IMG/VR virus record: IMGVR_UViG_3300021255_003438
Coordinates: 13,508 to 77,507 of that record
Direction: 5' to 3' (one strand)
DNA: 64,000 bases
From: a virus
Taxonomy: Duplodnaviria; Heunggongvirae; Uroviricota; Caudoviricetes
Part shown: positions 210 through 34,934 of the stretch, piece after piece
How the letters are laid out: every line of letters starts with the position of its first letter
Numbering within the stretch: the first letter of the stretch is position 1
Notes under the pieces: model-generated
Database searches by the model: none
What the model was told of the DNA's origin: nothing
The model's input: the letters and a program-made list of their open reading frames with translations, nothing else
Program-made: the position numbers and the translations under genes

Positions 210-896
210 TTATTCCAATTTCTTCCACATATCTTCTGGATATGAACTATGCAGCTTATTCAACCACCACTTTGTCTTCGTCTTACACATTGGCAGTCTC
301 TGACCACTCATAAGCGTTGACCTCTTAATTACCACACCTTCCTTAATATTAGGATATTGACAGCCCTTTTCCGTCCAATCATTGTTGTTTACGGAGTTGA
401 TGAAATCCATGTTAAGTTTGCCAATGTATATCACCTCTGGAGTTTCAATCCTATCGTCCTCACAGAAGATGTCAATGAATGTGTTAGGCTCAATATAGCC
501 CTTTTTCTTCAAAAACACGTCAATCAATGCAAGGTGCATTTCATCACCATCTTGGTGGAATCCACAAAAGCTGTGCTCACCGTACCATTCAAAGAACAGT
601 GTAATTTCTTCAATGCCGTTGAAGATGCCTTTCTTTCCAGAGTTATTAATAATGATTTCCCTCAAAACATTTTCATAGTTCTTTTTAAAGAACCTTACAG
701 CATCACCAAACCCATCTGTGTTTTCATCCACTAGGGTTTGACGAGAGCCAAACAATGTAAACTGTTGCTTAGTTGCACCCTTGGGAGTATATTTCACCCT
801 AAAATTTTGGCCATCAAGCTTGTTGAACGCAACTACTTGTTCACCATGTAGTGTTTTGTCATCCCTAAAATTTGGTATGCTTAGATATTCTTTCAT
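210..896 (-). CDS. Putative ATP-dependent RNA ligase-like nucleotidyltransferase (KxDG motif)
   Basis: 228 aa ORF. N-terminal 'AFNKLDGQNFRV' matches covalent nucleotidyltransferase motif I (KxDG). Ends with a TAA stop. Confidence 0.45.
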   Translation of the reverse strand: MKEYLSIPNFRDDKTLHGEQVVAFNKLDGQNFRVKYTPKGATKQQFTLFGSRQTLVDENTDGFGDAVRFFKKNYENVLREIIINNSGKKGIFNGIEEITLFFEWYGEHSFCGFHQDGDEMHLALIDVFLKKKGYIEPNTFIDIFCEDDRIETPEVIYIGKLNMDFINSVNNNDWTEKGCQYPNIKEGVVIKRSTLMSGQRLPMCKTKTKWWLNKLHSSYPEDMWKKLE

Positions 897-2782: not shown

Positions 2783-2985
2783 ATTCGTTTAATCTTATTT
2801 ATGTCTAGATTTACGATACTAGCGTTTAGTCTTTCCTCATTGCCTTTCACATTTGTAATCTTTCCATCCCTAATAATGACTATTGTGCACTGTCCATTCC
2901 CATGTAATGAATATAGATACCACTGTCTGTTCGGTTTCCAATCGTCAACATAGGTCACTACATCGCCAACTTGTAGGTTATCCAT
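2779..2985 (-). CDS. Hypothetical small protein
   Basis: 68 aa ORF with a 4-nt overlap to its neighbours. Confidence 0.35.
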   Translation of the reverse strand: MDNLQVGDVVTYVDDWKPNRQWYLYSLHGNGQCTIVIIRDGKITNVKGNEERLNASIVNLDINKIKRI

Positions 2986-3481
2986 TTTCCTTCAACAGCT
3001 TTTCCCTAACCTCATCTAATGCTTTCCCAAGTAGGTTTAAACCGTTCCAATTGGACTTGTCATCAAGTGCTTCTGTCTCTCCGCATTTGATGCCATAAAT
3101 TCCATCGATGGGTGAAGCCTCCACAAAGTGCTTACCCTTTAGCTCATCATTGAGCAAGTTAGCCTTAAGCTCTTCGTTGTTCTTGAACTTGTGATAACAA
3201 GCATCAACCATGACTTGATAACGCTTTTCATCCCAAACTTTATCGTCATAGTTCTTTACCATGCGCCCAAACGTCTTGGCTTTCTTTGGATTCTTGCCCT
3301 CAAGTAGTATCTTAAGTGCCATTTCTTCGTCACCGAATGTCTTGGCTTTGATGTACATGAAATACTGTTCAGAGTTATAGAATGTATAATTATTACCGTC
3401 AATCTTTACATTGAAAAGACATGGAAACCAGTTTGATGGCCATTCTCCCCAAAAAAATACGTGCTTATCTGTTACTCTCAT
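2978..3481 (-). CDS. NADAR (DUF1768/YbiA-like) domain protein, ADP-ribose/NAD-related N-glycosidase family
   Basis: 167 aa. 'FFWGEWPSNW...YNSEQYFMYIKAKTFGD...KFKNNEELKANLL...EASPIDGIYGIKCGE' matches the NADAR consensus (FxSNf...saEqyfq..Ka..F.D...EaSp.D..WGiG). Confidence 0.7.
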   Translation of the reverse strand: MRVTDKHVFFWGEWPSNWFPCLFNVKIDGNNYTFYNSEQYFMYIKAKTFGDEEMALKILLEGKNPKKAKTFGRMVKNYDDKVWDEKRYQVMVDACYHKFKNNEELKANLLNDELKGKHFVEASPIDGIYGIKCGETEALDDKSNWNGLNLLGKALDEVREKLLKENG

Positions 3482-3842
3482 AATAATGGTTTTTTAAAAT
3501 GGTAATTCTAATGGTGGGTTTTTTATCTATTAATTCCTTGGTTTTCAAATTGTATGTATACCTATTGGTTTCTTTCAATTCTTTGTCCAACATGAGCATG
3601 TTTTCTGCCGTTGGTTTGTCTAATATCCAATCTCCGTTGTCAACTATGAAAAGAATGTCATCTATTTTAAACTCTAAATCAAAATCTGAATGTATAAGGC
3701 AAAATTTATACCTAATTGACATTAGAGGACCGAAAGGAGTAGTTTCATCTGTTTTAGTAAATGTTGGATAAACCAATATCCAATTATATGACTGCCATTT
3801 TGATTTTAGTCTGCATAATTTATTTAATGGTATGTTTAACAT
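3465..3842 (-). CDS. Hypothetical protein
   Basis: 125 aa ORF. Confidence 0.4.
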   Translation of the reverse strand: MLNIPLNKLCRLKSKWQSYNWILVYPTFTKTDETTPFGPLMSIRYKFCLIHSDFDLEFKIDDILFIVDNGDWILDKPTAENMLMLDKELKETNRYTYNLKTKELIDKKPTIRITILKNHYYESNR

Positions 3843-3875
3843 TTTTCAATTCTAATGTTTAATAATTAATTCTCT

Positions 3876-4262
3876 TTAGGATTCTCCTTTAATTTTTAAA
3901 CGACTCCTATTTATTCTTAAATGGTTTTCCCTCATTACGTTTTTCAGCTTCATATACTCTTCAAGTGTCGGTTTTCTGATGACACACCTATTATTACACC
4001 CACAAATGGTATTAAAAGACCATTTATCAGTCATTGAATTATAGTACATATAGCAGTATATTTCGTGCCATCCCATACCGAAACCGTTTAAACTGACTGA
4101 TTTAACTATCCCAATTATTTTTTCTGTTAAAACATTATGGTCGTTTATGCCCCATCGCATATGTTTATACTCTAAAGCGAAAACATCACCAATTTTCAAT
4201 TTGTTGACAAATTCAATATTTGGGTCGTTTTTGCCATATTTTTTAGAACATACTTTCTCCAT
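3876..4262 (-). CDS. Hypothetical Cys-containing protein, paralog of 4243..4620
   Basis: 128 aa. Shares GxGWHxIxCY...W..N..CGC with the neighbour. Confidence 0.45.
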   Translation of the reverse strand: MEKVCSKKYGKNDPNIEFVNKLKIGDVFALEYKHMRWGINDHNVLTEKIIGIVKSVSLNGFGMGWHEIYCYMYYNSMTDKWSFNTICGCNNRCVIRKPTLEEYMKLKNVMRENHLRINRSRLKIKGES

Positions 4263-4620
4263 ATTCGTTAGTAAAATTAATATCTTCTCCTCTTGTTAAT
4301 AAACGTTTGTGGTTTAAAATGGTTTTGTTGCCTTTAAGTATGGAAGCCATTTTAAAATAATCTTCCATCGTTGGCTTTAATATTTTAGTCATTGTATCAC
4401 ATCCGCAAGAACCGTTTATATACCACTTTTTATTGGTTAAATTTATCAAAAAATAACAATTTATCTTATGCCAACCTTGTCCATACACATCTAGTGCACA
4501 AGACTTGAAAATGCCAACTATTTTTATTCTTGAGTTAAAGCTATTAAAAGCTATTTTAAATAAATCACCTTTTTTAAAATTAGCGATTATATCTTTATTT
4601 TTATCTTCTAATTCTATCAT
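4243..4620 (-). CDS. Hypothetical Cys-containing protein (paralog). Start moved to the internal Met downstream of the promoter.
   Basis: The ORF track gives 4243..4683, but a host-type promoter (-7 at 4644-4651) lies inside the 5' end. A Met (MIELEDK...) at 4620 fits. Confidence 0.4.
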   Translation of the reverse strand: MIELEDKNKDIIANFKKGDLFKIAFNSFNSRIKIVGIFKSCALDVYGQGWHKINCYFLINLTNKKWYINGSCGCDTMTKILKPTMEDYFKMASILKGNKTILNHKRLLTRGEDINFTNEYGESMF

Positions 4621-4643
4621 TTTACTATCTGCAATTATATTTG

Positions 4644-4675
4644 CAAATATATAAAAAAACATGGAGAATTCAAAA
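4644..4675 (-). promoter_or_regulatory. Bacteroidetes sigma-A type promoter (TTTG -33 / TAnnTTTG -7)
   Basis: Plus strand reads caaatata at 4644-4651 and caaa at 4671-4674 with a 19-nt spacer. Confidence 0.5.
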
Positions 4676-4703
4676 TCCTCCATGTTAATTTATGTTAACT
4701 GAT

Positions 4704-5927
4704 TTAACCAATCTGTTTAATCAGATAATTGCACTTCTCAGTATTTCCCAAGGTTTTACCCTTATCATTGGAAAGCTTAACGCAATCATGCCATTCACGG
4801 CTCTCTGTAAGCCTCATTCCAATCAATTTGATTACAATGTTGCTATAAGGAAATTTCTCTTTTGTTTCCATGTTGGCAACATCAGCGCAAAGATGTGTTC
4901 CAATGCCATAGGAGTCCTTCATACGTCCGCCAAGCCACTTGTGCAACTCAACAGCCTTGTCAATGGTAAGGGCGTTAGAATATACAATAGACTTGGTTGA
5001 TGGGTCAATACCAAGAGAACGATATTTCTCAATCATCTTCTCAGTTTCCTCATGCTCGTCACCACTGTCAATACGGATACCATCGAACATCTTAGCCATC
5101 TTTTTAGAGAAATTGGAAAGGAACACCTTTGAGCCAAAACAGTCAGGAAGGAATATGCCCAAGTCGCCGTCATACACGTCAGACCATTTCTTCATAACTT
5201 GATAATTGCACTCAAACACGCCACTTACGCACTCTTCGAATGAGCAAATCTGGTGTGACATCGTTCCTATCACTCCAAGGTCAAATTCCTTTGCAAACCA
5301 CACATTAGATGTTCCAACGAATTTTCCATTGTAATGAGGGGTTTTCTTAATCTCTATATCAGCATTTTTTAATGCGTTAATTACATTACGCTGAACGTCA
5401 AATGAAAAGCGTCTACGTGTTCCCATGTCAGAAAGCAGCAGTCCATTTGTAAATGCTTTAGCTCCTTTTGCATACGCTTCTCTGTATACGTCATCCATGT
5501 CAACCTTTTCAATGTCGCCTTTAAGTATATGCATCAACTCTGAAATGGTAGATAGAATTGGCATTTCCCACATAATTGTGGAATACCACTTACCCTCAAT
5601 CATAATTGAGAGATAGCCATCAAGGTCTTGGAAAATGTGAACCTCACTAGGATTGAAACGGAATCCACGAAGGAAATTGTAGTACCACTCTGGAAGGAAA
5701 TAAATCTTTTTCTTCATAAACTCAATCTCTTCTTCAGTGATAATTACATTGGCCATTCCGTTAATCTGCTCTTGTAGCATCTGACCAAATCCTTTTGGAT
5801 AGCGAGTATAGTTTCTGTCAAAGAACGAATACCTTACCTCTGCACGAGGATAAGTGTGTAAAATGTAATACTGACAAGTGTACGTATAGAGGTCGTTATC
5901 AGTAAAATGAGTTACAATTTGTTTCAT
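4704..5927 (-). CDS. pncB: Nicotinate phosphoribosyltransferase
   Basis: 407 aa. Has 'LLSDMGTRRRFS' and the overall NAPRTase layout and length. Confidence 0.8.
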   Translation of the reverse strand: MKQIVTHFTDNDLYTYTCQYYILHTYPRAEVRYSFFDRNYTRYPKGFGQMLQEQINGMANVIITEEEIEFMKKKIYFLPEWYYNFLRGFRFNPSEVHIFQDLDGYLSIMIEGKWYSTIMWEMPILSTISELMHILKGDIEKVDMDDVYREAYAKGAKAFTNGLLLSDMGTRRRFSFDVQRNVINALKNADIEIKKTPHYNGKFVGTSNVWFAKEFDLGVIGTMSHQICSFEECVSGVFECNYQVMKKWSDVYDGDLGIFLPDCFGSKVFLSNFSKKMAKMFDGIRIDSGDEHEETEKMIEKYRSLGIDPSTKSIVYSNALTIDKAVELHKWLGGRMKDSYGIGTHLCADVANMETKEKFPYSNIVIKLIGMRLTESREWHDCVKLSNDKGKTLGNTEKCNYLIKQIG

Positions 5928-5962
5928 GCTTTATATATTTTGGTAATAATATAGGTGTTGAC

Positions 5963-6406
5963 CTATTTTTGAATGCTAATCGAAATATCTGGTTTAACAA
6001 CGAGTTCAAATTGATTAAAGTCTTTACCGCCTTCTTTTTCTTTAATATATCTTTGTTTTAAATCAAAATTTTCGTGTTCCCCTTCATTTATAAACAATTC
6101 AACATCAATAATAGTTGCCAACTTGAATACTGGCATACTTCTAAATAATGTTGTATTCCAATAAATCATATCAATTTTGTTTTTAGCAGCCTTTTTAGTA
6201 TTAAACAATTTCGCATTGTTAATGTTTTGGCTGTAACATTTAAAATAATATGCACCGCCATCGTAATACAATGGCTCTTCTCCTTTCCACCCATCAGCAA
6301 TGAATTTTGGGTCTTCTTCAAGATGATACTTTTTTTTACAATTAAGTAACTCTTGTATACCATCTTTGGACGGAAATAATTTAATAATATATTTTTTCAT
6401 ATTCAA
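5963..6406 (-). CDS. Hypothetical protein
   Basis: 147 aa. Uses a TAG stop. Confidence 0.4.
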   Translation of the reverse strand: MNMKKYIIKLFPSKDGIQELLNCKKKYHLEEDPKFIADGWKGEEPLYYDGGAYYFKCYSQNINNAKLFNTKKAAKNKIDMIYWNTTLFRSMPVFKLATIIDVELFINEGEHENFDLKQRYIKEKEGGKDFNQFELVVKPDISISIQK

Positions 6407-6474
6407 TAATTAAAATTTAAAAATATGTTAATTTTTGCTTGGGTCAACTGATATATCATTGCCTATATTTTTAA

Positions 6475-6846
6475 TTAATGTATACTTTGTACAAAAACAT
6501 TTGATGTTGTGTTTTTACCTCGTCTTATAAGTATGATTTGGTCTTTGGTAGAGTCTTTTAACTCAAATACTATGTGTTGATTAATCCTGTTTTTCAGCAA
6601 AATAAGTGCTTCAAAAGGATAAAGTGCTTTAACAGCTATTATCTTCCACTCACGGCTAACAATACTAGTCGAAGGATATTCTGTATCACTACTACAAGGA
6701 ATGTTTGAACTAACGCCAAAAAAAGTTTTACTAGAATGGAGTTGAAAGCACCATTCGTTAGTATCTAGTGCCACAATATCACCAATATTCGGCACACAAT
6801 CGATGTCTGTGTATATACCTAAACGATTTCTAATGTGTATTGTCAT
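6475..6846 (-). CDS. Hypothetical protein
   Basis: 123 aa ORF. Confidence 0.4.
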   Translation of the reverse strand: MTIHIRNRLGIYTDIDCVPNIGDIVALDTNEWCFQLHSSKTFFGVSSNIPCSSDTEYPSTSIVSREWKIIAVKALYPFEALILLKNRINQHIVFELKDSTKDQIILIRRGKNTTSNVFVQSIH

Positions 6847-7364
6847 CTTCTTGGTAGTTTCAGAACTTTAGGAGTGTTGTTCTTGGGGTTATGCTTCACC
6901 ATTGCAAGTCCATCAACGCCAACCAATATACTTCTTTTCAATTCGTCAATAAGTTGGCATATTATATTATGCCCCCTTTCGTGCATAATCATTCCAGCAA
7001 TGCGCCATTTCTTATTTTGCCAATATTTTTCAGGTGGTATTTCACCATTTGCAACAAATAAGTAGCCTCCAGCGTAATAACGGTTATTAAAATCACTTCT
7101 ACCCATCAATCCATTGGGGTATTGTTCTTCTGCCTTAGAAAAACCATGCCATTTCTTTCCCCATAAAGCTTCCATAGCATCTGAATAGGTTGAATATAAG
7201 CATCCGTAATTTACGCACTTAACTATGTCATTTATGTTAAAGCCGCTATTGTTAATAACCGTTTCCATAGTCGTAATCGTATCTATTGTATCTGTGTTTC
7301 TGATAGCTGTTGCTGCCATCTTTTGCCATATCCCCAAGGTAATAGAAAGATTCACAGCAGCCAA
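6843..7364 (-). CDS. Hypothetical protein with HExxH (MIMHERGHN) motif, possible zinc metallopeptidase
   Basis: 173 aa. The single HExxH motif is the only evidence. Confidence 0.3.
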   Translation of the reverse strand: MAAVNLSITLGIWQKMAATAIRNTDTIDTITTMETVINNSGFNINDIVKCVNYGCLYSTYSDAMEALWGKKWHGFSKAEEQYPNGLMGRSDFNNRYYAGGYLFVANGEIPPEKYWQNKKWRIAGMIMHERGHNIICQLIDELKRSILVGVDGLAMVKHNPKNNTPKVLKLPRR

Positions 7365-7424
7365 CCATCAAGAATATTATTAGAATGAGCCTAATAAACC
7401 ATCTGAAAAAATCTCTTCCCATAA

Positions 7425-8327
7425 CTACTTTGCCTCTACGTTGGTATAGTACCATTTCTCAAACTCGTTAAACTCTTCTTCAGAAAATTCTTTTTTCACA
7501 CGGTCAAGTTCGACATAATCACAATATTTAACTTTTACGATTACCCTATTGCCATTGCCACTGCAAAGAGGTACAACTGGACGTGCGACAATACCCTCTT
7601 CAATCATGGTTGGGTCAGCAGCCTTATCGTACTGAGTCGTAAAACCACTACGAACTTTGCGCTCAATTTCCTCAAGCGTCATTACACCTAGGAATGGAAC
7701 AGTCTCAAGCCCAAGACCCTTACAGAGAGAGTCACGAACATCCTTTGGAGTCCACCAGCCTTGCTGCTGGATGTCGAACACTACGAACCCATTTCCGTTC
7801 TGAATATAACGAGAGCCGCATTTCTGAATGCCAGTTCCGAAATACTCGCCATAGATGTAGATGGGGACTTCCTCAAGACGAACACCATACTGCCCTTCAC
7901 TTGTAGGAACTACAGTTAAAAGGCCAAGATGGTCTGACATATCCCAATACTCAACCTTGTTGGTGCTGCTATCCTTTACAGGGGCAAACCTAGCAGTCTC
8001 TTTTGGGAACATGGCCTTTAACTGAGGCTTGATACGCTCACCTATGGCTTGCAGCATTTCAAACTGACCATGCTGAGAATCAGCCTTATCCGTTTTACCA
8101 CCAACACGAATCTCACCAGTTGATGGGAAGTATGCAATCTTGGAGTTAGTTCCGTCAATCTTGGAATATGCCTCCCAAGGACAATTGAACAGATACTTAG
8201 CCTCTACATTGGAGAAGTTACCAATGATGATTTTGTTCTTGAACTTAAGCCAATCCTTGTTAGGACACTCCTTGCCATCGAAAATGTACCTTTTATATAG
8301 GGTATCAATCTTAGTATATGTATTCAT
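7425..8327 (-). CDS. ATP-dependent RNA ligase-like protein
   Basis: 300 aa. 'EAYSKIDGTNSKIAYF' carries the KxDG(T)N motif I of RNA/DNA ligases. TAG stop at 7425-7427. A host-type promoter lies just upstream at 8348-8379. Confidence 0.6.
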   Translation of the reverse strand: MNTYTKIDTLYKRYIFDGKECPNKDWLKFKNKIIIGNFSNVEAKYLFNCPWEAYSKIDGTNSKIAYFPSTGEIRVGGKTDKADSQHGQFEMLQAIGERIKPQLKAMFPKETARFAPVKDSSTNKVEYWDMSDHLGLLTVVPTSEGQYGVRLEEVPIYIYGEYFGTGIQKCGSRYIQNGNGFVVFDIQQQGWWTPKDVRDSLCKGLGLETVPFLGVMTLEEIERKVRSGFTTQYDKAADPTMIEEGIVARPVVPLCSGNGNRVIVKVKYCDYVELDRVKKEFSEEEFNEFEKWYYTNVEAK

Positions 8328-8347
8328 GTTTTCTAATTTTTTTTTTG

Positions 8348-8379
8348 CAAATATACGATAAACTTACGAAATAGCCAAA
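8348..8379 (-). promoter_or_regulatory. Bacteroidetes-type promoter
   Basis: caaatata at 8348-8355 and ccaaa at 8375-8379, spacer 19 nt. Confidence 0.55.
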
Positions 8380-8397
8380 TATGAAATGTTAAAAATG

Positions 8398-8922
8398 CTA
8401 AATATAGGTTTTATACTCTGCATAAGATATAAACATTCCCAAAACTATTGCCACAAGCAAAAGTGCTTTTATTGGAAGAATTATTGTTAAATAGCAAAAG
8501 AAAATCATCAGTCCAACAGTTGTTGTTATTACACCCCCAACCATTTTGTAGTGAACATCAGTATGCTTTGTTACAATTTCATTAGGATGGCTCTTAAAAT
8601 AGTCTTCGATGAATATGTCTTGCAACGATTCTATTGTCACTGGTTCTTTTACATACTTAATTTTTTTTGTCGGCAAACAATGAATAAGTTTTATCCCTTC
8701 CATGAACTCAGTTGGAGGAACGCTTGTTGTTGGAAATTTGACTTTATTCGTCCGTATTATGTAATCATGCCTTACTAGGAAAGAAAGATTATCATCATAA
8801 TAGTAATCGTAAAGGCTTTTATATGAAAGCATAAAACTTCCAAACAACTTTCTTTTTTTAAGAGACCTAAAAAAAGAAATGAAATGTTTTAAATATGGAC
8901 TAGAATGAATTCTTTTTTTCAT
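8398..8922 (-). CDS. Membrane protein
   Basis: 174 aa with C-terminal hydrophobic segments. Confidence 0.4.
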   Translation of the reverse strand: MKKRIHSSPYLKHFISFFRSLKKRKLFGSFMLSYKSLYDYYYDDNLSFLVRHDYIIRTNKVKFPTTSVPPTEFMEGIKLIHCLPTKKIKYVKEPVTIESLQDIFIEDYFKSHPNEIVTKHTDVHYKMVGGVITTTVGLMIFFCYLTIILPIKALLLVAIVLGMFISYAEYKTYI

Positions 8923-9143
8923 TTATAAAATAGGTTGCTAAATGGTTTTATAACACGTTTCCAATTAAACAATCTGTTAATGAAGCCTTCACTTTTCAAA
9001 TCATCAAACAATTCTTTTGCTTCGTTGAACTTTTGTTTGTATATGATTGTTTGATTTTTCTCTTCAATTAAAGAAGATTCCAAGGACTTAACTTTATCCT
9101 TAAGTCCTTGGTACTCTTCCATTGGAATTTCTATACGAGCCAT
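8919..9143 (-). CDS. Hypothetical small coiled-coil protein
   Basis: 74 aa ORF. Confidence 0.3.
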   Translation of the reverse strand: MARIEIPMEEYQGLKDKVKSLESSLIEEKNQTIIYKQKFNEAKELFDDLKSEGFINRLFNWKRVIKPFSNLFYK

Positions 9144-9742
9144 ACTCTTTCTGAATTTTCAATAAAATTAGTAAAGCTATTTGCTGTGTCTTCGGCTATA
9201 GCTGGGCTATATTCCTTCATCACTGCGAAATTAACATCAGGCATCGCTTTAACGCCATCTTTCACTGAGTCTGCAAGGCAATAGTCATATGCAAGGCCGC
9301 ATACATTAATGACTTGCGGTTTAATATAGTTGCAAAGGTTTACGATGAGGTCATGAGACTTTTCGTTCTTGAACACAGAATATTCCTCATGCTCTTCATT
9401 AAGACCCTTGGTGACTACAACATAATCAGCCTTAATTTCGTTGAGCGCGTCAAGAATCGGCTGATAGATAGCTGCTCCATGAGAGTGCTGAACACAGTGC
9501 ATTGGCCACATGCCGCCATTATCCTTAAACGAACAATGTGTGATAGGATGCCAATCAGCAGTTAGAATGATTTTTTCGTAATCCTTTCCGTGACCTCTGA
9601 TAAAGTCAGCCAAGTTATTCATTGCTCTCTCTGCACCATTTACAGGGAGTGTTCCACCCTCTAAAAAATCATATTGTGGGTCTACTACTAATAAAATTTT
9701 ACTTGTCATATTATTATTTGTTTTATTTTTCTTATAAATCAA
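9131..9742 (-). CDS. pncA: Nicotinamidase/pyrazinamidase (isochorismatase family)
   Basis: 'ILLVVDPQYDFLEGGTLPV', 'ADWHP', and a catalytic Cys context (NVCGLAYDYC). The start may be the internal Met at 9709. Confidence 0.75.
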   Translation of the reverse strand: MIYKKNKTNNNMTSKILLVVDPQYDFLEGGTLPVNGAERAMNNLADFIRGHGKDYEKIILTADWHPITHCSFKDNGGMWPMHCVQHSHGAAIYQPILDALNEIKADYVVVTKGLNEEHEEYSVFKNEKSHDLIVNLCNYIKPQVINVCGLAYDYCLADSVKDGVKAMPDVNFAVMKEYSPAIAEDTANSFTNFIENSERVWLV

Positions 9743-9983: not shown

Positions 9984-11381
9984 TCAAGTTGTTAGGCTCT
10001 TAATTTTATTCTCTACGACCTCAAAGCATTCATCTTTCGTAATATTTGGATTTTCGAAATAGGCATCTTTGACTGCCTCAAGCAGAACTCCAATTATCGG
10101 CCCACCTTTTAATTTAAATTCTGCCATAATGTCTTTTCCATTTATAGGCAGTTTGATGTTGGCCATCTTATCAATGTCCTCAAGCTCTTCTATTCTGTTA
10201 AGAAGGTCGTACACTTGTCGTTTTTTCTTGTCGTATGTGGAATGTAGGTTATTGGCGTTCATTAGGTCAACCACTGTTCCGATGTCGTTTCCGCATAGAT
10301 TCATGAACTTTCTGATTTTCTTATCTGGAGGTACTACGCCATCCGCATAGATTTTGAAAATCCTATGATATTCTATAGCAGTTTGTACGCTTTTAATGAT
10401 ATGGTTTGGAAACTTCATCATCTTCAAGTCTGCTGCTGCAATCTCTCCGCTAAAGTTATCAGGATTAACTGTTTTGTCCTTATCCGTTATAACCTTTCCA
10501 ACGTCATGGAATAATGCTGCCAATCTGCTTTCAAGGTATGGCTGCGTTTCGTCCAACACATTCATGGTATGGTCAAATGTTGTTACCATTGGGTTTTTAG
10601 ACTCATACGCAAAGTTAGTGTCGTATATATCAGGCATTACCTTGTTCAGCACGCCACAGTAATACATTTTCCTTATGCCAACGCTAGGCTTGCTGCATAA
10701 CAGAATTTTTGAAATTTCATCACTGATTCGTTCTTGTGATACGATTTCCAACCTATTTACGTTTTTAATCATACCAAGCCATGTGTCCTTATCAATACCC
10801 CATCCTAGACGAGTTGAGAAACGAATGACACGCATAATCCTCAATGGGTCATCATTGAACGTTATATCTGGGTCTGTTGGTGTTCGTATGATTTTAGCAC
10901 AAAGGTCAGAATATCCAGTGCCGTTAAAATCGCACAGTTTATCTTGGCTTATGTTGTAATATAAAGAATTGATTGTTAAATCTCTTCTTTTTGCGTCTTC
11001 TTCTATAGTTCCAAATACAGTCTCTGGATTCCTATTTTCTTTATGATACTGCTCCTTACGAGTCTGCACACATTCTATTTCAATGTCCTTAAACTCTTCG
11101 TGTTTATATAATTGGAATTTAGCAGTACCATAGGTCTCAAATATTACAGGATTTGTTGACGTAACAAAACATTGATGTTTCATCGTCATGTATGTGGAGA
11201 ATAGAAGTCCTCCATTTGGTATGTCAATTACCAAATCCAAATCCTTAATTGGAAGCCCTAAGATGCTGTCACGGACAGAGCCACCGACAACGTATACATG
11301 ATTGTCGAAGTGGGTGAACTTAATCGTTTCCCTTATTAGATTTAGAAGCTTTTTTATTTTCTCGTCCTTGAATATTTCCAT
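9984..11381 (-). CDS. cca: tRNA nucleotidyltransferase (CCA-adding enzyme) with HD domain
   Basis: 465 aa. 'VVGGSVRDSILGLPIKDLDLV' is the PolyA-polymerase head motif. 'LFHDVGK' is the HD motif. Confidence 0.8.
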   Translation of the reverse strand: MEIFKDEKIKKLLNLIRETIKFTHFDNHVYVVGGSVRDSILGLPIKDLDLVIDIPNGGLLFSTYMTMKHQCFVTSTNPVIFETYGTAKFQLYKHEEFKDIEIECVQTRKEQYHKENRNPETVFGTIEEDAKRRDLTINSLYYNISQDKLCDFNGTGYSDLCAKIIRTPTDPDITFNDDPLRIMRVIRFSTRLGWGIDKDTWLGMIKNVNRLEIVSQERISDEISKILLCSKPSVGIRKMYYCGVLNKVMPDIYDTNFAYESKNPMVTTFDHTMNVLDETQPYLESRLAALFHDVGKVITDKDKTVNPDNFSGEIAAADLKMMKFPNHIIKSVQTAIEYHRIFKIYADGVVPPDKKIRKFMNLCGNDIGTVVDLMNANNLHSTYDKKKRQVYDLLNRIEELEDIDKMANIKLPINGKDIMAEFKLKGGPIIGVLLEAVKDAYFENPNITKDECFEVVENKIKSLTT

Positions 11382-13774: not shown

Positions 13775-15154
13775 TTATCTGTTTGGGGTCGTTTCACCTA
13801 GATAGTTCGGCATTTCAAAATGCATTCTAACTGGTTCATATTCAATATGAGGTACTTGAATGTCAGCAGTTATAGTTGCTGCGATTTGGTTTACACCGTT
13901 CAGTGCTGTGTTGTCAATGAAATCCCTATCCATTTGTTGGCCAATTCTGCCACCAAATATATCATCAAGGGAATCATCATCGTCATTTGCCGCACCAACA
14001 GCACCTACTCCTTCCATAGGTTCGCCACCTTCTACTTCTTCCTCACCTATAAGCTCACCGTTCTCTACCTCATCCTCTTCAATGTCAAAGGCGTTTGTCA
14101 TTTCACTTCCTATGCTTTCAATTTTTTTAATAAGCTCATCCGTTACTTCTTTATTGTAGGAAATTTTGGTTGAAGAATCAAAATTTACTCCAAAATTAGC
14201 AGACACGCAATCATTGAAAGAATATGTTTCTTGTTTGCCTAGAGATTGGAACAGAATATCATTCACGATATTGTTGTGATTTGTTTTATATCTTGTGTAA
14301 AACCAAGTATATGGTTTTTTGTTTTTGCTAATAATCTTTTCATACACCTTATCCATGAGTCTTCTTTCATTAAGAATGTCCTCAAGGAGTGACTTGTCTT
14401 TCAAGGCCCAAGAACTCTTATTGAAGGAGTTGGTGCCAGGAAATGCAAACGATGGGCATGTGCTAGACACTATGCAAGCGATGTCATAGTCTTCTAATAT
14501 ACTATCAATCGCTTTTTCGTTGTAAACAAAACTTTCATCTTTCCAATACAGTTTCCTACCGATTCTTTCTTGCTGCGCCTTTTTCCATTCCCTATCCAAT
14601 GAAATGCTTCCGCCCAAACATAGGCAGTTGAATGATTCAAACTTAACTATTGAATAATCAGGTACTGTCTTCACATTTGACAGATTGATTTCTTCATTGT
14701 TGAACAAACTAGGGTTGTCGCTGTTTCCTCTGACAAACAGCACATGACAATTGTTATCACTTAAAACTGTATTGAAATTGTTAAACTTAGAAATGTAGAA
14801 AGATGTGTCTTTACTACCCAAACCACAATTTCCGCATACGATTATAATAGTGTCATTTAAGAAACCACGCATACTTGACATCATCTTTTTAAGCGATGGC
14901 CTAGAATGGTCAAATGCATGAGCGTGCAAACCAAAAGGATTGACAAAAGGGTTATTAAGTTGTTCTCTAAGTCTTTCCTCTTCTTTCCTTTTAAGCCTTT
15001 CTTGTCTTTCAACTTCTTTTGGATGAATTTCTTTTGATACGTTCTGTGTATTAGGCAGTTTTCTTATAACGTTTTCGATGAATTTGTCAAGGCCGTTTTC
15101 TATACTGCCACAAAGCACACAGTTATTAATCGGTTCGTAATCATAAATTTTCAT
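13775..15154 (-). CDS. Hypothetical protein with degenerate calcineurin-like phosphoesterase motifs and an acidic C-terminus. Start adjusted.
   Basis: 'IIIVCGNCG' and 'FVRGNSDNP' weakly resemble metallophosphoesterase motifs GDxHG and GNH[DE]. The ORF track gives 13775..15352, but a promoter at 15197-15228 lies inside, so the Met at 15154 (MKIYDYEP) is the likely start. Confidence 0.35.
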   Translation of the reverse strand: MKIYDYEPINNCVLCGSIENGLDKFIENVIRKLPNTQNVSKEIHPKEVERQERLKRKEEERLREQLNNPFVNPFGLHAHAFDHSRPSLKKMMSSMRGFLNDTIIIVCGNCGLGSKDTSFYISKFNNFNTVLSDNNCHVLFVRGNSDNPSLFNNEEINLSNVKTVPDYSIVKFESFNCLCLGGSISLDREWKKAQQERIGRKLYWKDESFVYNEKAIDSILEDYDIACIVSSTCPSFAFPGTNSFNKSSWALKDKSLLEDILNERRLMDKVYEKIISKNKKPYTWFYTRYKTNHNNIVNDILFQSLGKQETYSFNDCVSANFGVNFDSSTKISYNKEVTDELIKKIESIGSEMTNAFDIEEDEVENGELIGEEEVEGGEPMEGVGAVGAANDDDDSLDDIFGGRIGQQMDRDFIDNTALNGVNQIAATITADIQVPHIEYEPVRMHFEMPNYLGETTPNR

Positions 15155-15196
15155 ACTTGTTAGGTTTTTTAAAAATTCGACATATATTTCTTTTTG

Positions 15197-15228
15197 CAAA
15201 GATATGTTTTTTTTTCTTAATTTCCAAA
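15197..15228 (-). promoter_or_regulatory. Bacteroidetes-type promoter
   Basis: caaagata at 15197-15204 and ccaaa at 15224-15228, spacer 19 nt. Confidence 0.5.
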
Positions 15229-15290
15229 ATTTGAACAATAAAAAAATGAGTGATACTTTCAAAATAGCACCACTCATTTCTGTATGTAGT

Positions 15291-17654: not shown

Positions 17655-20174
17655 TTAATCGTTACCCCTACGCAAATAAGGAGGGTTCGCACCAACAGCA
17701 ACTAAGTAGTCATTTAACATGGCGGTAGTTACTGGAGTAACGTTTGACTTAGCAAACTTTTCACTGACTTTGATTTGCTCATACAAATCGTTACACAGTT
17801 TCTTAGCCCATCCATGCTTATTGGAAATGTTTTTAGCAATTTCCTTAAGCTCCTCATCACCGTACATGACAGAGTACCTAATAAAATGGGTAGTTGCATC
17901 GTTTCTCTGATTGAAATCAAGCCTGTTAATCATTGCAAGCAAGAATTCTTTAATCGCATCACCAACCAAGCTAGAAGAAAATATGTTCGTGATAACCCTT
18001 CCGTAATGTCTAGAATACTCTACAGTTGTTTTTTCGTTGGAAACCTCTTTCTCTAACAACATTTTCATAAGTATGTAGTTTCCCACATAAACAGTAAAGT
18101 TTCTGTCTGCTATTGAACGATTATAGAATGCTTCAATGTCTTCTTCCGAAGGTTTCTTAAAGTTGTTGTTCTCAAACACCCTTCTGCCATAGTTTTTCAT
18201 AGTGTTGAACACCATTTTGAACAATTCACTGACATAGCCCTCATCCAAGAATTGTGAAAGTATGTAGCCGTTGTCATAGAATATGTCCAAGTAATCAAAT
18301 GAAAGATAATCGTTAACAGACACCCTAATCAAATGATACAAATGCTCATTGTCTATGTAGTTGTTCAATACAATTTCCATGACCTTTTTGTCTTTCTCTA
18401 GACAATCTTTAATCATAGGCGTATTGAAATTTAAAAACGCATTCTTGAACTTCCTAACATTATCATCCGTTCTTCTGATAATGTCATAAGGCACGCCAAA
18501 TTCAATAAGCTTTGCATCGAAATTGTTTAAAATAGGCGTAGAGGTCTCATTATACATTGCATTGCAATAATCTTCATCAGACCCACCATCGTATATAATA
18601 GCAAACTGGAGCTTGTTTGGGTCGTACTGACTCATTGAAAAGTCAATGAAAATGATGTGCTGTTCACCCCAATCGTCAGAAGAAACATTATCCATGTAGG
18701 CATCACCAAAGAAATACTTGATGTTCTCATCAGTGACAGATAAGACAAGTTTGTCACCATCTGACTTAATAATGTCCACATTTTCAGAATTGACGCATTC
18801 ATATAGATAATCCATGAGTGCTTCCCTATCCCACTTGTAAAGCGGCTTGTCGTAATGGGCAACCAAAGTAATATCTATATTGCAGTCTTGCATTATCTTA
18901 TAGATGTTCTTATTATTGTCAAATCTTGAAACATAAGACGTGAGGTACTGCATGGCATTGTTGTCACTAGCCATAAGGTTGTTGTTAACAAAGTCATGGG
19001 CTGACGTAATACCTTTATTATATGTGGTAGTGAATCCAACAATAGATAATTTTTCATCCTCAAGCTTTGAGAAGTCAAATATCATATACTGGGTTGCCTT
19101 GCCATGATGGTTTTCAATGTAGTTGTTCCAATATGACTTGTTCTTGGAAATACACCAGTTGGTTGTCTTACCCAACTGCTTAATCGTCTCATAATCAGCC
19201 ACTTTCACAAGAACGACATTATCACTCTCGTATATTGTTTCATACTTAATACCCTCAACGTTCCTAATGAAGTCCATAAATGAATCTTTGTTCCATTCAA
19301 AATGAACGCTAGTTATGTGGCGCATTTGCCTCATAAGCTCTTGGAAGTCTTCAATGGTCGAAACTTTTTTGATGAAGTTAATGCGCTTTGTATCAGACAG
19401 CTTTGAGAACCTAGCAAGGGTCTTATTGTCAGTTTCAGACAATTCATTAGTCTTTAACAGCTTTTTCTGTGCGGTGTTGAAAGAGTTAATGGCATCGTTG
19501 ATGCGCTTTCCGTTCCTAAGTTCAGAAAGCTCATCCAACAGTTTGGCAATGGCATCAGGAGTTGTGTATGCCGTAATACTACCTTTGCTAAGATTTTTGG
19601 ACAACTGTTTGTAATATTCGTTCCAAGTCAGTATGTTCTGGATTGTCCTCATTGAAATACCATACTGATAATGGAGATTAACTGCCCACTGGAAAAAGTT
19701 CTTAGAACCATCTGTGTAGATGTAAAGCCTTTTGATTCTTACGTCTCTAGTATTGAAGCCAATCTTATCACTGAGCGTTTTAATCATCTTGGCATTTTCT
19801 TTCAAAAATGCTTCGTAATCCTTGTCAAACGTTTTAGGCAATAAATATATTTCATTGAAAAATGCATTATATTCCGTAAAATTGTCATGGTCATGCCTAG
19901 GCTTGACTTCAAGTATTCTTGAATGCTCAATATCCTTTAGCTCCTTTTTCAATTCTTTGTTATAACTCACAATTGAGCTAAACCCATAATTGTTCTGGTT
20001 ATAATAACTGTTGAAGATAAACATACGTTCACCCATAAGGGGATTATCCTTTTCAGTTTTTACAACCTCGCAAATATCATAGCCATGCTCGTTGCAACGG
20101 GCTAGTATTTTCTGGAGAGAGGTATCAGCTACCCTCCAAAGATGTCTGATACCTCTAATGCTTGTTCCTATCAT
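17655..20174 (-). CDS. Very large hypothetical protein (paralogous domain shared with 15291..17333). Start adjusted.
   Basis: The ORF track extends to 20561, but that 5' extension overlaps the upstream gene in another frame. The Met at 20174 (MIGTSIRG...) abuts the stop of the upstream gene. Confidence 0.5.
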   Translation of the reverse strand: MIGTSIRGIRHLWRVADTSLQKILARCNEHGYDICEVVKTEKDNPLMGERMFIFNSYYNQNNYGFSSIVSYNKELKKELKDIEHSRILEVKPRHDHDNFTEYNAFFNEIYLLPKTFDKDYEAFLKENAKMIKTLSDKIGFNTRDVRIKRLYIYTDGSKNFFQWAVNLHYQYGISMRTIQNILTWNEYYKQLSKNLSKGSITAYTTPDAIAKLLDELSELRNGKRINDAINSFNTAQKKLLKTNELSETDNKTLARFSKLSDTKRINFIKKVSTIEDFQELMRQMRHITSVHFEWNKDSFMDFIRNVEGIKYETIYESDNVVLVKVADYETIKQLGKTTNWCISKNKSYWNNYIENHHGKATQYMIFDFSKLEDEKLSIVGFTTTYNKGITSAHDFVNNNLMASDNNAMQYLTSYVSRFDNNKNIYKIMQDCNIDITLVAHYDKPLYKWDREALMDYLYECVNSENVDIIKSDGDKLVLSVTDENIKYFFGDAYMDNVSSDDWGEQHIIFIDFSMSQYDPNKLQFAIIYDGGSDEDYCNAMYNETSTPILNNFDAKLIEFGVPYDIIRRTDDNVRKFKNAFLNFNTPMIKDCLEKDKKVMEIVLNNYIDNEHLYHLIRVSVNDYLSFDYLDIFYDNGYILSQFLDEGYVSELFKMVFNTMKNYGRRVFENNNFKKPSEEDIEAFYNRSIADRNFTVYVGNYILMKMLLEKEVSNEKTTVEYSRHYGRVITNIFSSSLVGDAIKEFLLAMINRLDFNQRNDATTHFIRYSVMYGDEELKEIAKNISNKHGWAKKLCNDLYEQIKVSEKFAKSNVTPVTTAMLNDYLVAVGANPPYLRRGND

Positions 20175-20184
20175 ATCGTAACTG

Positions 20185-21711
20185 TTAGAATTTAATTTCG
20201 TTATTGAATTTTTCGCTGATAGCAGCTTCAAATACATCGAACAAAACATGATTCTGCACGCACAAGTCCTTAACGGCCTCAAGCACCTCTTCCTTAATCG
20301 AGTTGATGTGACCCTCGTAGCGGTTGACGATATACTTAACCGTTTCAAACTTGATTTCGTCCTCTTTCTTGGTGGTGTACGTTGTGGTAGTATTGGTGTT
20401 CGTGTGCGTTGAACCGCTACCATAACCAAAGTAGTTCTTACGAGTGTTGTCACCAAGGTTTTCAAGCTTTGTAATGTCATCAACGTCAACACGCTTGTAT
20501 GTACCATCGTCATTACGCACGTATGTGCCATTGTTACGGTCAGTCCAAGTGCTGCCGCCATGCTTCAAGTAATGCCTTGTGCAACCAATTGATTCGATAA
20601 GGTCAACGCCCATACCACATGCTTGGTCCATGTCTTCAATGATGCAGTACTCATTTTCAGAGTGAGCATAATAACCACCGTTACCAAAGTTCATACAGAT
20701 AACTTCGACTTTCTCACGAATGTTCTTAACGTCCGTGTAAGGCTCTGAGAAGAAACAGCCTTTGGTAAGACCCCAACGGTCACAAACCTCTTTCATATGT
20801 TTCTCGTAGAACTCATAGCTAAACAACTTTGTTCCACTACAAGCCCATGCAGCACGATAAAGGTCTGGAGAGTCATAACCAATCACATAACCTACATCTT
20901 TAAACCAATCCTTGTCAAGGTTATCACTTCCATGACAACCTGTTTCCTCATCCAAAAAGAAGCAAGCCTTAAGTTTGTCAAGGTGATTAAACAACGAAAG
21001 ACAGATACATACACCGCCCTTGTCATCAGCACCAATACCAATTGAAGAGCCACCGTTTGCATCAACGCTAATCTTATGCAAGCCATCCTTGGTGCGCTCG
21101 GTCTTGAGGTCAAGAGGAACACCTGCATAGATGTATGGGTCATGCTTGGTCTGAACAGTATCAAGGTGTGACGTTACGCAAGGATAGTATTCGCCTTCTG
21201 CAAGTTCACCCTTTGTCAGATACACATTGCCAAAGTCATCAAACTCATATTTGATGCCGTTCTTTCTAGCCCACAAGATGATAAATACGACCATTCTGTA
21301 CTCTAACTTACTGTGAGTAGGAACAGACATACAATCATACACGAAATCCTTGTCAAGATACAAGAGCTTCATGTCATCGTCACGAGGGTTCAAAGGAATT
21401 GTAACAGCCTCAGTAGGCTCGGTAGATGTAGGAGGTATTTCAACAGCATCGTCTTCTGTATAATCCTCTACAGTGGTTTGCGCGTTAGTTTCTGCGCTAT
21501 TTTCCACGTTGTTCTCTTTGATTGACTCATTGGTGCTGTCGTTGGCAACATTAGCGTTAGCAACATTAGCGTTTTCTGCGCTAGTATTCTCTACGTTTTC
21601 GTTAGAGTCAGTCTTTGGTTTTTCAACCTCTGCTGATGGTGTCTGAACCACCTCAGTAGGTGTGTTGGCAACAACATTGCCATTCTCATTTAAAATGTTT
21701 GAGTCAGTCAT
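20185..21711 (-). CDS. M20-family metallopeptidase-like protein with an acidic N-terminal extension
   Basis: 'CVTSHLDTV' and 'IGADDKGGV' resemble the M20/ArgE/DapE metal-binding motifs. The start is moved to the Met at 21711 because a promoter at 21739-21770 overlaps the annotated start. Confidence 0.45.
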   Translation of the reverse strand: MTDSNILNENGNVVANTPTEVVQTPSAEVEKPKTDSNENVENTSAENANVANANVANDSTNESIKENNVENSAETNAQTTVEDYTEDDAVEIPPTSTEPTEAVTIPLNPRDDDMKLLYLDKDFVYDCMSVPTHSKLEYRMVVFIILWARKNGIKYEFDDFGNVYLTKGELAEGEYYPCVTSHLDTVQTKHDPYIYAGVPLDLKTERTKDGLHKISVDANGGSSIGIGADDKGGVCICLSLFNHLDKLKACFFLDEETGCHGSDNLDKDWFKDVGYVIGYDSPDLYRAAWACSGTKLFSYEFYEKHMKEVCDRWGLTKGCFFSEPYTDVKNIREKVEVICMNFGNGGYYAHSENEYCIIEDMDQACGMGVDLIESIGCTRHYLKHGGSTWTDRNNGTYVRNDDGTYKRVDVDDITKLENLGDNTRKNYFGYGSGSTHTNTNTTTTYTTKKEDEIKFETVKYIVNRYEGHINSIKEEVLEAVKDLCVQNHVLFDVFEAAISEKFNNEIKF

Positions 21712-21738
21712 TTCGATTATTGATTTAATTAGTTTTTG

Positions 21739-21770
21739 CAAAGATATGAAATTTTAATCAGTTAAACAAA
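21739..21770 (-). promoter_or_regulatory. Bacteroidetes-type promoter
   Basis: caaagata at 21739-21746 and caaa at 21767-21770, spacer 20 nt. Confidence 0.5.
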
Positions 21771-21802
21771 TAATTGGTATAAATTTTAACATTAATTAAC
21801 TA

Positions 21803-22048
21803 TTACTCCACTATTGCACATGCTACCAACGGTGAAACATTGCTTTTAGGGGCAATCTGTATTCTTATTTCGTTTCTTTTACCTATAGTAATATCTTTCT
21901 CATTACAACCTTGCGTTGTGACATTCACACCAATTTTATAACCCAAAGACTTAATTAAACTTGTCCTTAGTTCAATGTTCTTAACATGGTCAACAAAATA
22001 GTTGATGTCACGAATATCAATTGAAAAATCTTTTTTATTCTTACCCAT
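21803..22048 (-). CDS. Hypothetical protein
   Basis: 81 aa ORF. Confidence 0.35.
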   Translation of the reverse strand: MGKNKKDFSIDIRDINYFVDHVKNIELRTSLIKSLGYKIGVNVTTQGCNEKDITIGKRNEIRIQIAPKSNVSPLVACAIVE

Positions 22049-22928: not shown

Positions 22929-22957
22929 ACTGTTGAAATTTAGTTTTTACTTTTGTG

Positions 22958-22989: not shown

Positions 22990-23019
22990 AATGATTCCTC
23001 AATTCTATATTAAAAAATG

Positions 23020-34048: not shown

Positions 34049-34456
34049 CTAGTAATTCATACGTGAGGGTATAACACCTCTTACGCCACCTCTAGGGTTT
34101 TCAACGTCACCCTCATATCTAGGAATTATGTGTATGTGACAATGATGAATGGTTTGCCCAGCAACCTCTCCACAGTTAATACCAATATTATAACCTTGGG
34201 GATGGTATCTTTCGTCTAATATTTTTTTGGCATTCTCTATCGCATAATGCAATGACTCCTTTTGAGAATCTGATAAATCAAAATATGTTTCAACGTGTTC
34301 CTTTGGTATAATAAGTGTGTGACCTTTAGATACTGGATATTCATCTAATACGGCTTTCCATATAGTTCTGTCGAACAACACATTCTCTTCCTTTTGATTT
34401 TCACAAAAAACACACTTATCCATTGTTCTGCTGCCCATTCTCTCTAATGTGTTCAA
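34049..34456 (-). CDS. HIT-family (histidine triad) nucleotide hydrolase/transferase
   Basis: 135 aa. 'IHHCHIHIIPR' is the HxHxHxx motif. Confidence 0.75.
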   Translation of the reverse strand: MNTLERMGSRTMDKCVFCENQKEENVLFDRTIWKAVLDEYPVSKGHTLIIPKEHVETYFDLSDSQKESLHYAIENAKKILDERYHPQGYNIGINCGEVAGQTIHHCHIHIIPRYEGDVENPRGGVRGVIPSRMNY

Positions 34457-34934
34457 CTGCGCTCTTAAGTGCTACCGAAATGGCTTTTTCAATATTATTG
34501 CTTCTAGAAGAATCAGCTTCAATCTTTACATACTTGAAAGTGACTCTTCCATTTATTTTCTTGCACACACAAATCCATATTGTACCATTTTCACTGTCCT
34601 CATGGATAAATGCGTCACCAATAACACTAATACATACATCTACGTTAAACATATAAGACGCACATAATGCAGTTTTCATTGCCACTTGAGAACTGTATAA
34701 GCCATTCGCCTTTATAACATCTTCACCTATTCCCATCAACGTTTTAAGGGCATCGTCATTGAAATAGTTAAGAGTGCCCTTATATATTGTTGGAACGGCA
34801 CATACGCTTCCTATGGTTGCTCCAAGCAGTCCACAAGTACAATTTTCAACCGTTGCTATCGTTAGACCTCTGTTGAGGATTTCTAGGGCTAATTCTTTCA
34901 ATTCTTCACTCATCGAAATAAACGTTTTTGTCAA
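34416..34934 (-). CDS. pncC: CinA C-terminal domain protein (PncC-like NMN deamidase)
   Basis: 172 aa. 'TIATVENCTCGLLGATIGSV...YSSQVAMKTA...DVCISVIGDA...GTIWI' matches the CinA_C/PncC consensus (ESCTGGLLA...SNE.K...GAVS...MA.GA...ISVTGIAGP...GTV). Confidence 0.6.
   Translation of the reverse strand: MTKTFISMSEELKELALEILNRGLTIATVENCTCGLLGATIGSVCAVPTIYKGTLNYFNDDALKTLMGIGEDVIKANGLYSSQVAMKTALCASYMFNVDVCISVIGDAFIHEDSENGTIWICVCKKINGRVTFKYVKIEADSSRSNNIEKAISVALKSAVEHIRENGQQNNG

Follow-up and report, generated by a model that had tools for sequence, protein, structure and literature searches.

Predicted genes of a deamidated NAD+ salvage route, and a separate NADAR protein, in a jumbo phage probably infecting rumen Bacteroidales

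Depletion of nicotinamide adenine dinucleotide (NAD+) is among the commonest outputs of bacterial immunity, and phages are known to counter NADase defences by reconstituting the cofactor through three validated pathways, none of them deamidated: NARP1 (Adps/Namat), NARP2 (NAMPT/NMNAT) and NARP3 (PnuC/NadR). Neither nicotinamidase (PncA) nor nicotinate phosphoribosyltransferase (PncB) is mentioned in the preprint of Osterman et al. on NARP, and the Aravind-lab surveys cover the NadV/NadM/NadR system only. Gut jumbo phages with Preiss-Handler clusters, such as the pncB-nadD-nadE of Kuafu_71, were reported by Li et al. (Microbiome 2024, PMC11662467), who proposed a role in counter-defence and for whose Kuafu clade Bacteroidota are the sole predicted hosts; pncA appears there in the discussion only, and Nudix, NADAR and CinA are not mentioned. 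Phage NADARs that defeat DarTG1 were likewise described in 2024 (PMC11257639). Here we analysed a 64-kb stretch of DNA (64,000 nucleotides, hereafter the window; positions 13,508 to 77,507 of IMG/VR virus record IMGVR_UViG_3300021255_003438), which an earlier note had read as carrying a six-gene counter-defence module of PncA, PncB, a PncC-like protein, NADAR, Nudix and HIT. Systems of this kind are already known from gut metagenomes, and the module has fewer and partly other members than first proposed; the novelty claimed for the combination did not survive comparison with the Preiss-Handler clusters (PMC11662467) and the phage NADARs active against DarTG1 (PMC11257639), both already published.

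The window has about 35% G+C, with nearly all genes on the minus strand, and represents an early or middle part of a jumbo-phage genome at least 201 kb long. Its proteins match exactly those of ENA metagenome contig NODE_38_length_201037 (ERZ12302814; 201,037 bp) and of a 75-kb scaffold from a separate assembly, and its IMG/VR relatives are contigs of 100-412 kb, while megablast with 25 kb of window sequence as query gave no match among deposited phages. Besides the genes discussed below, it encodes HNH and endonuclease VII genes, a DnaB-like helicase/primase and an Srd-like anti-sigma factor, and it also holds two RNA ligases and a CCA-adding enzyme. All six open reading frames (ORFs) named in the earlier note are present on the minus strand and hold at the domain level in profile searches, with the Pfam score of PncA just under the gathering score; catalytic residues are kept in PncB, PncA, NADAR, Nudix and HIT, and are lost in the supposed PncC. 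Four of the six genes carry the findings that follow (aa, amino acids; PRPP, phosphoribosyl pyrophosphate; NaMN, nicotinate mononucleotide):

4704..5927, minus strand: PncB, nicotinate phosphoribosyltransferase, 407 aa, predicted to convert nicotinate and PRPP (with ATP) to NaMN; NAPRTase_N and NAPRTase domains, TIGR01514
9131..9709, minus strand: PncA, nicotinamidase, 192 aa from the ATG at 9709, predicted to convert nicotinamide to nicotinate and NH3; matches to solved nicotinamidases, active-site residues
2978..3481, minus strand: NADAR domain protein, 167 aa, YbiA-type; PF08719, TIGR02464
25575..26165, minus strand: Nudix hydrolase, 196 aa, of a family found inside PncA-PncB-NadE-NadD clusters of other phages; Pfam NUDIX, 58 bits

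The assignment of PncB proved sound. The protein contains both family domains (NAPRTase_N, PF17767, 106 bits; NAPRTase, PF04095, 151 bits), passes the NCBIfam equivalog model TIGR01514 (330.4 bits vs a cutoff of 269.55) and aligns over its full length (residues 4-399) to the solved NAPRTase of Porphyromonas gingivalis (2im5, 7e-76). His225 and the GTRRR, GTSN and DSGD motifs are unchanged across six divergent phage copies, and the segment GTMSHQ lines up with GTMAHE of 1yir. The conserved active-site histidine is presumably the one autophosphorylated in the ATP-coupled enzyme (His219 in Salmonella PncB). Identity with the Namat of NARP1 was considered and rejected on the strength of the equivalog model and of the full-length alignment to a solved Bacteroidota PncB. 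The top 80 cellular matches to the PncB of the window are without exception from Bacteroidales, mostly Prevotella and ruminant metagenome-assembled genomes, with the nearest Prevotella/Bacteroidales proteins 61-63% identical, which bears out the Bacteroidota link drawn earlier; the host is predicted to be among rumen Bacteroidales and is probably Prevotella-like. Average-linkage clustering on identity, which is cruder than a tree and drew its bacterial sequences from these 80 matches alone, placed the phage PncBs in at least three sequence groups, only one of which, the window's, clusters with Bacteroidales genes; the other groups are 36-43% identical and cluster apart. Because the phage proteins fall in separate groups, with a single one near Bacteroidales, these results suggest that phages captured PncB more than once.

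PncA was also correctly identified, although its start needed revision: the TTG at 9742 adopted in the earlier note adds 11 residues, the gene call on the public contig gives 192 aa, and the ATG at 9709 is likely the true start. The protein matches seven solved nicotinamidases (5e-23 to 3e-13; 1ilw, 5.3e-23; 3r2j, 1.3e-22). Equivalents of the catalytic triad Asp10/Lys94/Cys133 and of the metal-site residues Asp52/His54/His71 occur both in the window protein and in 50 of 50 distinct phage orthologues; the numbering is what we take to be that of the P. horikoshii nicotinamidase (D10/K94/C133 and D52/H54/H71), and the residues at those numbers matched. Orthologues within the window's clade have diverged to 49-67% identity with all six active-site residues kept, which argues for selection on function.

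We then surveyed gene linkage in 84 viral loci with a PncB relative, covering 10 kb on each side; IMG/VR holds 429 PncB-encoding stretches. The partners found near PncB were as follows:

PncA: 63/84 loci
NadE (NAD synthase): 58/84 loci
Nudix of the window's family: 36/84 loci
NadD-like cytidylyltransferase-fold protein (GSFDPPHIGH motif): 35/84 loci
CinA: 0/84 loci
HIT: 0/84 loci

The RNA ligases RnlA (6/84) and RnlB (7/84) and NADAR (7/84) were found near PncB nearly always in the window's own clade. Two relatives are compact: in a 356-kb IMG/VR contig (L006), whose PncB shares 77% identity with that of the window, the genes run PncA-NadE-PncB-Nudix-orf-NadD, and in MT835470, a 117-kb human-gut phage, they run PncA-orf-PncB-NadE-AAA-NadD-Nudix. 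On the linkage counts and these two relatives, the conserved unit consists of PncA, PncB, NadE, NadD and Nudix, which together make up a complete predicted route from nicotinamide to NAD+. Seven relatives, with PncB identities of 70-82%, belong to the clade of the window, whose genomes include IMGVR_UViG_3300021256_000001 and 3300032007_000003. Here the arrangement is different, in the order CCA enzyme - PncA - RNA ligase - PncB - NADAR - RNA ligase, and NadE, NadD and Nudix are missing from the neighbourhood of PncB. The idea that the six genes form one module therefore falls to the survey, with CinA and HIT absent from all PncB neighbourhoods and NADAR confined to one clade. A function in NAD+ salvage is nevertheless a well-founded prediction for PncA and PncB, because both are intact, conserved in the clade and clustered elsewhere with NadE, NadD-like proteins and the Nudix family. 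As a side observation, a tblastn search of LR756501.1 (a 735-kb 'huge phage'; 20001-28207) found PncB with a NadE-like gene directly downstream and a PncA-like gene 7 kb off. Li et al. (PMC11662467) credit this phage with nadD only and list it without a complete pathway; PncB, the NadE-like and PncA-like genes and nadD might together complete a Preiss-Handler route.

The phage of the window encodes its own NadE, located on the same ENA contig (L248, 6028-6936, equivalent to window positions 65852-66760) about 1.9 kb past the right end of the window. Relatives in the clade also carry NadE, in an equivalent place some 70 kb from PncB and on one contig with it. Searches for NadD by tblastn, with a profile made from six phage NadD-like proteins and with Pfam on two unannotated ORFs beside NadE were all negative in 78 kb of this phage, and none turned up on the contigs of the clade, so that the pathway would be incomplete without the host. 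NadD is either elsewhere in the genome, or the host enzyme is used. Like the NAD-jumbo phages of Preiss-Handler type of Li et al. (PMC11662467), a type defined by pncB, nadD and nadE together, this phage is jumbo, comes from a ruminant gut sample, has a Bacteroidota-type host signal and encodes PncB and NadE, and the same purpose is proposed for it, namely an independent NAD+ supply and possibly counter-defence. Unlike theirs, its genes are dispersed rather than clustered, and the 78 kb read, out of a contig of 201 kb or more, yielded no NadD. On the source contig (L248, 1-6936; 8.8 kb past the right end of the window), NadE has as neighbours a TyrRS-like gene (423 aa), a sigma-70-like gene and one encoding a DUF2828 protein. 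An RtcB-like RNA ligase follows NadE in one relative (L102).

The Nudix hydrolase stands 20 kb from the pair, and its family assignment was upheld by the Pfam match listed above and an intact Nudix box GX5EX7REUXEEXGU ('GYLDFDETTKECAVRECFEETGV'). It shares 50% identity with the Nudix embedded in the MT835470 cluster, 3 kb downstream of PncB, and 29% with the one abutting PncB in L006. A proline about 16 residues past the box is kept across the family, and we take a proline at this place to be a signature of ADP-ribose pyrophosphatases (ADPRases). In Foldseek searches with an AlphaFold2 model (mean predicted local distance difference test score, pLDDT, 83.9), the Nudix domain of NrtR with bound ADP-ribose (3gz8) ranked 2 and 4, and NUDT15, Dcp2 and CDP-Chase appeared at similar E-values. 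The enzyme probably cleaves ADP-ribose or NAD(H).

Taken together, these data make it rather probable, in our judgement, that the phage uses Preiss-Handler salvage to sustain or rebuild NAD+ during infection, plausibly against NADase defences, and that it carries a NADAR as a separate function. In this scheme, PncA would hydrolyse nicotinamide to nicotinate, and PncB would join nicotinate and PRPP to form NaMN. An adenylyltransferase, probably the NadD of the host since no phage copy was seen in the accessible sequence, would convert NaMN to nicotinate adenine dinucleotide (NaAD), which the phage NadE would amidate to NAD+. The Nudix hydrolase may cleave ADP-ribose (or NAD(H)) and so return ribose-5-phosphate towards PRPP. 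In this way, what NADase effectors (TIR, SIR2 and the like) leave behind could be turned back into NAD+, an outcome that NARP1-3 reach by different chemistry. NARP2 (NadV/NAMPT and NMNAT-Nudix, as in Vibrio phage KVP40; Osterman et al. 2024) likewise leads from nicotinamide and PRPP to NAD+, includes a Nudix activity and occurs mostly in large phages. It differs in taking an amidated two-step route via nicotinamide mononucleotide (NMN), whereas the route predicted here is deamidated (nicotinamide to nicotinate, NaMN, NaAD and NAD+), needs PncA, PncB, NadD and NadE and costs more ATP; moreover, counter-defence has been demonstrated for NARP2 and is only proposed here. NARP1 (Adps and Namat) and NARP3 (PnuC and NadR) are also phage-encoded means of restoring NAD+ after immune depletion, but the former rebuilds it from ADPR-PP (ADP-ribose pyrophosphate) and nicotinamide and the latter imports nicotinamide riboside. 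A Pfam survey of the window's ORFs found no NAMPT or NMNAT and none of the other signature proteins of NARP1-3 (PRPS-like Adps, NAMPT-like Namat, PnuC, NadR).

Several results weigh against this reading. PncA scores below curated cutoffs (Pfam Isochorismatase, 26.2 vs a gathering score of 27; NCBIfam NF008623, 78 vs 174), and the Nudix hydrolase reached no NCBIfam equivalog, with sequence and fold searches that do not discriminate its substrate. The genes of the window's clade are dispersed and form no operon, PncA and PncB being 3.2 kb apart, the Nudix gene 20 kb and NadE 60 kb away, and no NadD, NMNAT or PRPP synthetase was detected in the 78 kb of phage read or on contigs of the clade. The host lineage has its own PncB, so the phage would add flux rather than a new capability. 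Finally, the validated phage NAD+ pathways are NARP1-3 only, and counter-defence by the deamidated route is a proposal.

The same observations bear on a different purpose for the genes, general metabolic provisioning, in which PncA, PncB and NadE would raise NAD+ for NAD+-dependent enzymes of the phage (for example, a DNA ligase encoded elsewhere) and for the long jumbo-phage cycle without being aimed at NADase immunity. A phage copy of a gene that the host lineage already has looks like flux boosting, and the salvage genes lie dispersed between replication, tRNA and RNA-repair functions rather than next to recognisable anti-defence genes. NAD+-dependent ligases occur in 90/174 NAD-jumbo phages, for which a redirection of NAD+ metabolism to phage needs has been proposed (Li et al. 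2024, PMC11662467). However, no NAD+-consuming enzyme was found in the window, and a route that starts from nicotinamide, a product of NADases, and travels with a Nudix hydrolase fits the recycling of NADase products. Provisioning is also compatible with counter-defence, and the purpose of the genes could be either or both. As an explanation by itself, we regard provisioning as possible but rather unlikely. More tentatively than the salvage reading itself, we propose that PncA-PncB-NadE(-NadD)-Nudix represents a fourth, deamidated phage pathway of NAD+ reconstitution, which would recycle both NADase products, nicotinamide by way of PncA and PncB and ADP-ribose by way of the Nudix hydrolase to ribose-5-phosphate and PRPP, and would be widespread and multiply acquired, the window's lineage being a reduced form that leans on host NadD. 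The window and, above all, its compact-cluster relatives (PncA-PncB-NadE-NadD-Nudix) provide concrete gene sets for a candidate route against NADase defences in the gut-dominant Bacteroidales.

The NADAR protein has a predicted function separate from that of the salvage enzymes; its occurrences within 10 kb of PncB are all in the window's own clade. The family claim is secure, with scores far above the cutoffs (PF08719, 144.7 bits vs 35.1; TIGR02464, 130 vs 73.7; phrog_1017, 1.8e-47). The best match is the stand-alone NADAR of Phytophthora nicotianae crystallised with ADP-ribose (8BAU, 4.9e-23), whose ADP-ribose contact residues are conserved in the window protein: 'SEQYFM..K', 'AK..GR' and 'VEAS' align with the contacting regions around E43/K50, K75/R79 and the last-strand Glu. 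Stand-alone NADAR domains also occur in other phages as T4 AdfN/gp30.3, NADAR-Bas32 and NADAR-Bas60 (PMC11257639). The residue in the last strand of the window protein is Glu ('FVEAS'), which marks the YbiA subfamily (PMC11125620), rather than the His of the T4 gp30.3 type or the Asp of the DarT1-associated BC4488 type, and the protein thus falls outside the AdfN/DarG1 types. Every NADAR tested so far hydrolyses guanine-ADP-ribose, although specificity in vivo differs among them, and E. coli YbiA gives no rescue from DarT1 or YarT toxicity (PMC11125620). By analogy, the window's NADAR is a probable nucleic-acid (guanine) ADP-ribosyl glycohydrolase that would strip ADP-ribose from bases, as other phage NADARs do against DarT1, and the earlier suggestion that it reverses nucleic-acid ADP-ribosylation is a reasonable reading.

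Genes for RNA repair surround the pair and NADAR in the window's clade:

210..896, minus strand: second RNA ligase, 228 aa, downstream of NADAR; PF09414, 39.9 bits, phrog_548, 1.4e-19
7425..8327, minus strand: RNA ligase, 300 aa, between PncA and PncB, a clade-conserved neighbour and context rather than part of salvage; PF09414, 61.4 bits, phrog_548
9984..11381, minus strand: CCA-adding tRNA nucleotidyltransferase, upstream of PncA; PolyA_pol, PolyA_pol_RNAbd and tRNA_NucTran2_2 domains, TIGR02692, 210 bits, phrog_2244

The ligase between PncA and PncB occupies the equivalent position in loci L005, L011, L012 and L015-L018, the second ligase is kept in L005, L011, L015 and L018, and the position of the CCA-adding enzyme gene is kept across the clade. 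This arrangement could be taken as an RNA/DNA damage-repair island, in which the six genes from the CCA enzyme to the second ligase repair nucleic acids hit by ADP-ribosyltransferases or anticodon nucleases, with PncA and PncB clearing nicotinamide and restoring NAD+ locally. The gene order kept in the seven relatives is in its favour, as are a HAD 'Swiss Army Knife' RNA-repair domain and a CCA enzyme flanking the MT835470 cluster and the suggestion that NADAR and Macro domains take part in NAD+-dependent RNA repair in jumbo phages (Iyer et al. 2021). Yet synteny within one clade can be mere descent, the window encodes no Tpt1-like NAD+-dependent RNA-repair enzyme, and beyond the clade PncA and PncB travel with NadE, NadD and Nudix, without RNA ligases or NADAR. 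We therefore consider a repair island improbable, and salvage remains the preferred reading of PncA and PncB.

The last two of the six genes lie in the tRNA region of the window, beside an amber-suppressor tRNA:

34049..34438, minus strand: HIT-family hydrolase; PF01230, 73.4 bits, histidine triad HxHxHxx present as 'HHCHIHIIP'
34416..34913, minus strand: CinA_C-fold protein, 165 aa from the ATG at 34913, not PncC; PF02464, 68.9 bits
35398-35472, minus strand: amber-suppressor tRNA(CUA)

The true start of the CinA-like gene is likely the ATG at 34913, as in its homologues, and that of the HIT gene the ATG at 34438 or 34423. The CinA-like protein has the fold family (PF02464) in common with bacterial PncC, the NMN deamidase at the C-terminus of CinA, and it matches PDB 5vu3 (1.3e-8) as well as 2a9s and 6l19, yet it scores under the TIGR00199 cutoff (50.2 vs 68.9). 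Its motif reads VENCTCG where the canonical sequence is AESCTGG, with Ser as the nucleophile; the equivalents of Ser31, Lys63 and Thr105 are all lost, with Leu in the Lys column and 'VIGDA' in place of 'ITGYA'. Among 163 CinA domains collected by an exhaustive HMMER search and then aligned, Ser is kept in 138; in the window's subfamily the position is occupied by Asn, Gln, His, Glu, Cys or Ala, and Lys and Thr are lost too. In the A. tumefaciens CinA, S31A and K63A are inactive (PMC5384747). The PncC assignment thus fails because the catalytic residues are lost, an outcome that the earlier note had itself named as refuting it. For annotation, this means that the phage CinA-fold subfamily without deamidase residues should not be counted as NAD salvage. 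The inactive fold could serve as a nucleotide-binding protein, and inactive PncC mutants are reportedly used as NMN binders (PMC8231969).

The CinA-like and HIT genes overlap, and the block orf119 - tRNA(CUA) - orf151 - CinA-like - HIT is kept inside the tRNA region in 7/8 related IMG/VR loci (window 34049-35936, minus strand). In these loci, the CinA-like protein evolves fast (30-44% identity) compared with HIT (59-62%) and orf119 (62-77%). Being absent near PncB in the survey and forming a conserved pair of their own by the suppressor tRNA, rather than with NAD genes as for bacterial PncC, the two are a separate pair with no detectable tie to NAD salvage. The HIT family and its histidine triad were confirmed, and its place in an NAD or ADP-ribose module was not. 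To our knowledge, the substrates of HIT enzymes are nucleotide phosphoramidates and adenylates rather than ADP-ribose. These findings bear most directly on the original six-gene proposal, a concerted counter-defence in which NaMN is regenerated from nicotinamide and NMN by PncA, PncB and PncC, and ADP-ribose conjugates are handled by NADAR, Nudix and HIT. All six domains are present, and the first three come from families with members in the NAD cycle, but a whole CinA subfamily without the Ser, Lys and Thr needed for NMN deamidation, the separate linkage of CinA and HIT and the known substrates of the HIT family make that proposal very improbable.

The tRNA region as a whole (27298-60557, minus strand) holds more than 32 tRNA genes, the amber-suppressor tRNA and a tmRNA:

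40374-40735, minus strand: tmRNA (transfer-messenger RNA), tag GEYIDTPAYEYAIAA

Recoding of TAG was considered for the window on account of the tRNA(CUA) and rejected: when TAG is read as sense, ORFs gain less length than in the TGA and TAA controls, and no ORFs merge. As 11 genes also end in TAG, the window uses the standard code, and recoding, if any, would concern other, presumably late parts of the genome. Scans for sigma-70 promoters (49 sites vs 41.6±7.8) and terminators (5 vs 4.9±2.3) were at chance level and are probably unsuited to Bacteroidota; we therefore make no operon claims. A 13-bp hairpin with a T-run lies directly past the PncB stop codon (4658-4686, minus strand) and overlaps the start codon of the next ORF (4243-4683); terminator-like sites are not enriched regionally. 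Among the other large ORFs, that of 500 aa at 13775-15277 (minus strand) has no Pfam match and no NAD-related domain, that of 522 aa at 20185-21753 (minus strand) matches Peptidase_M20 only weakly (24.1 bits, under the gathering score) and is not NAD-related, and the final ORF of the window encodes a TelA-family protein (434 aa) cut by the window edge.

A stand-alone element of 80 nucleotides within the tRNA array, by tRNA-Arg(ACG) (52087-52166, minus strand), matches the L1-stalk region of 23S rRNA (Rfam LSU positions 2131-2210, 57-63 bits). Its loops equal the consensus and its closing stem differs. Two further matches to the pattern were genuine 23S genes, and similar stand-alone copies stand beside tRNAs in a contig of the clade (L344) and in an unrelated 119-kb viral contig (L340). 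The element may bind ribosomal protein uL1 and so act as a decoy or a regulator.

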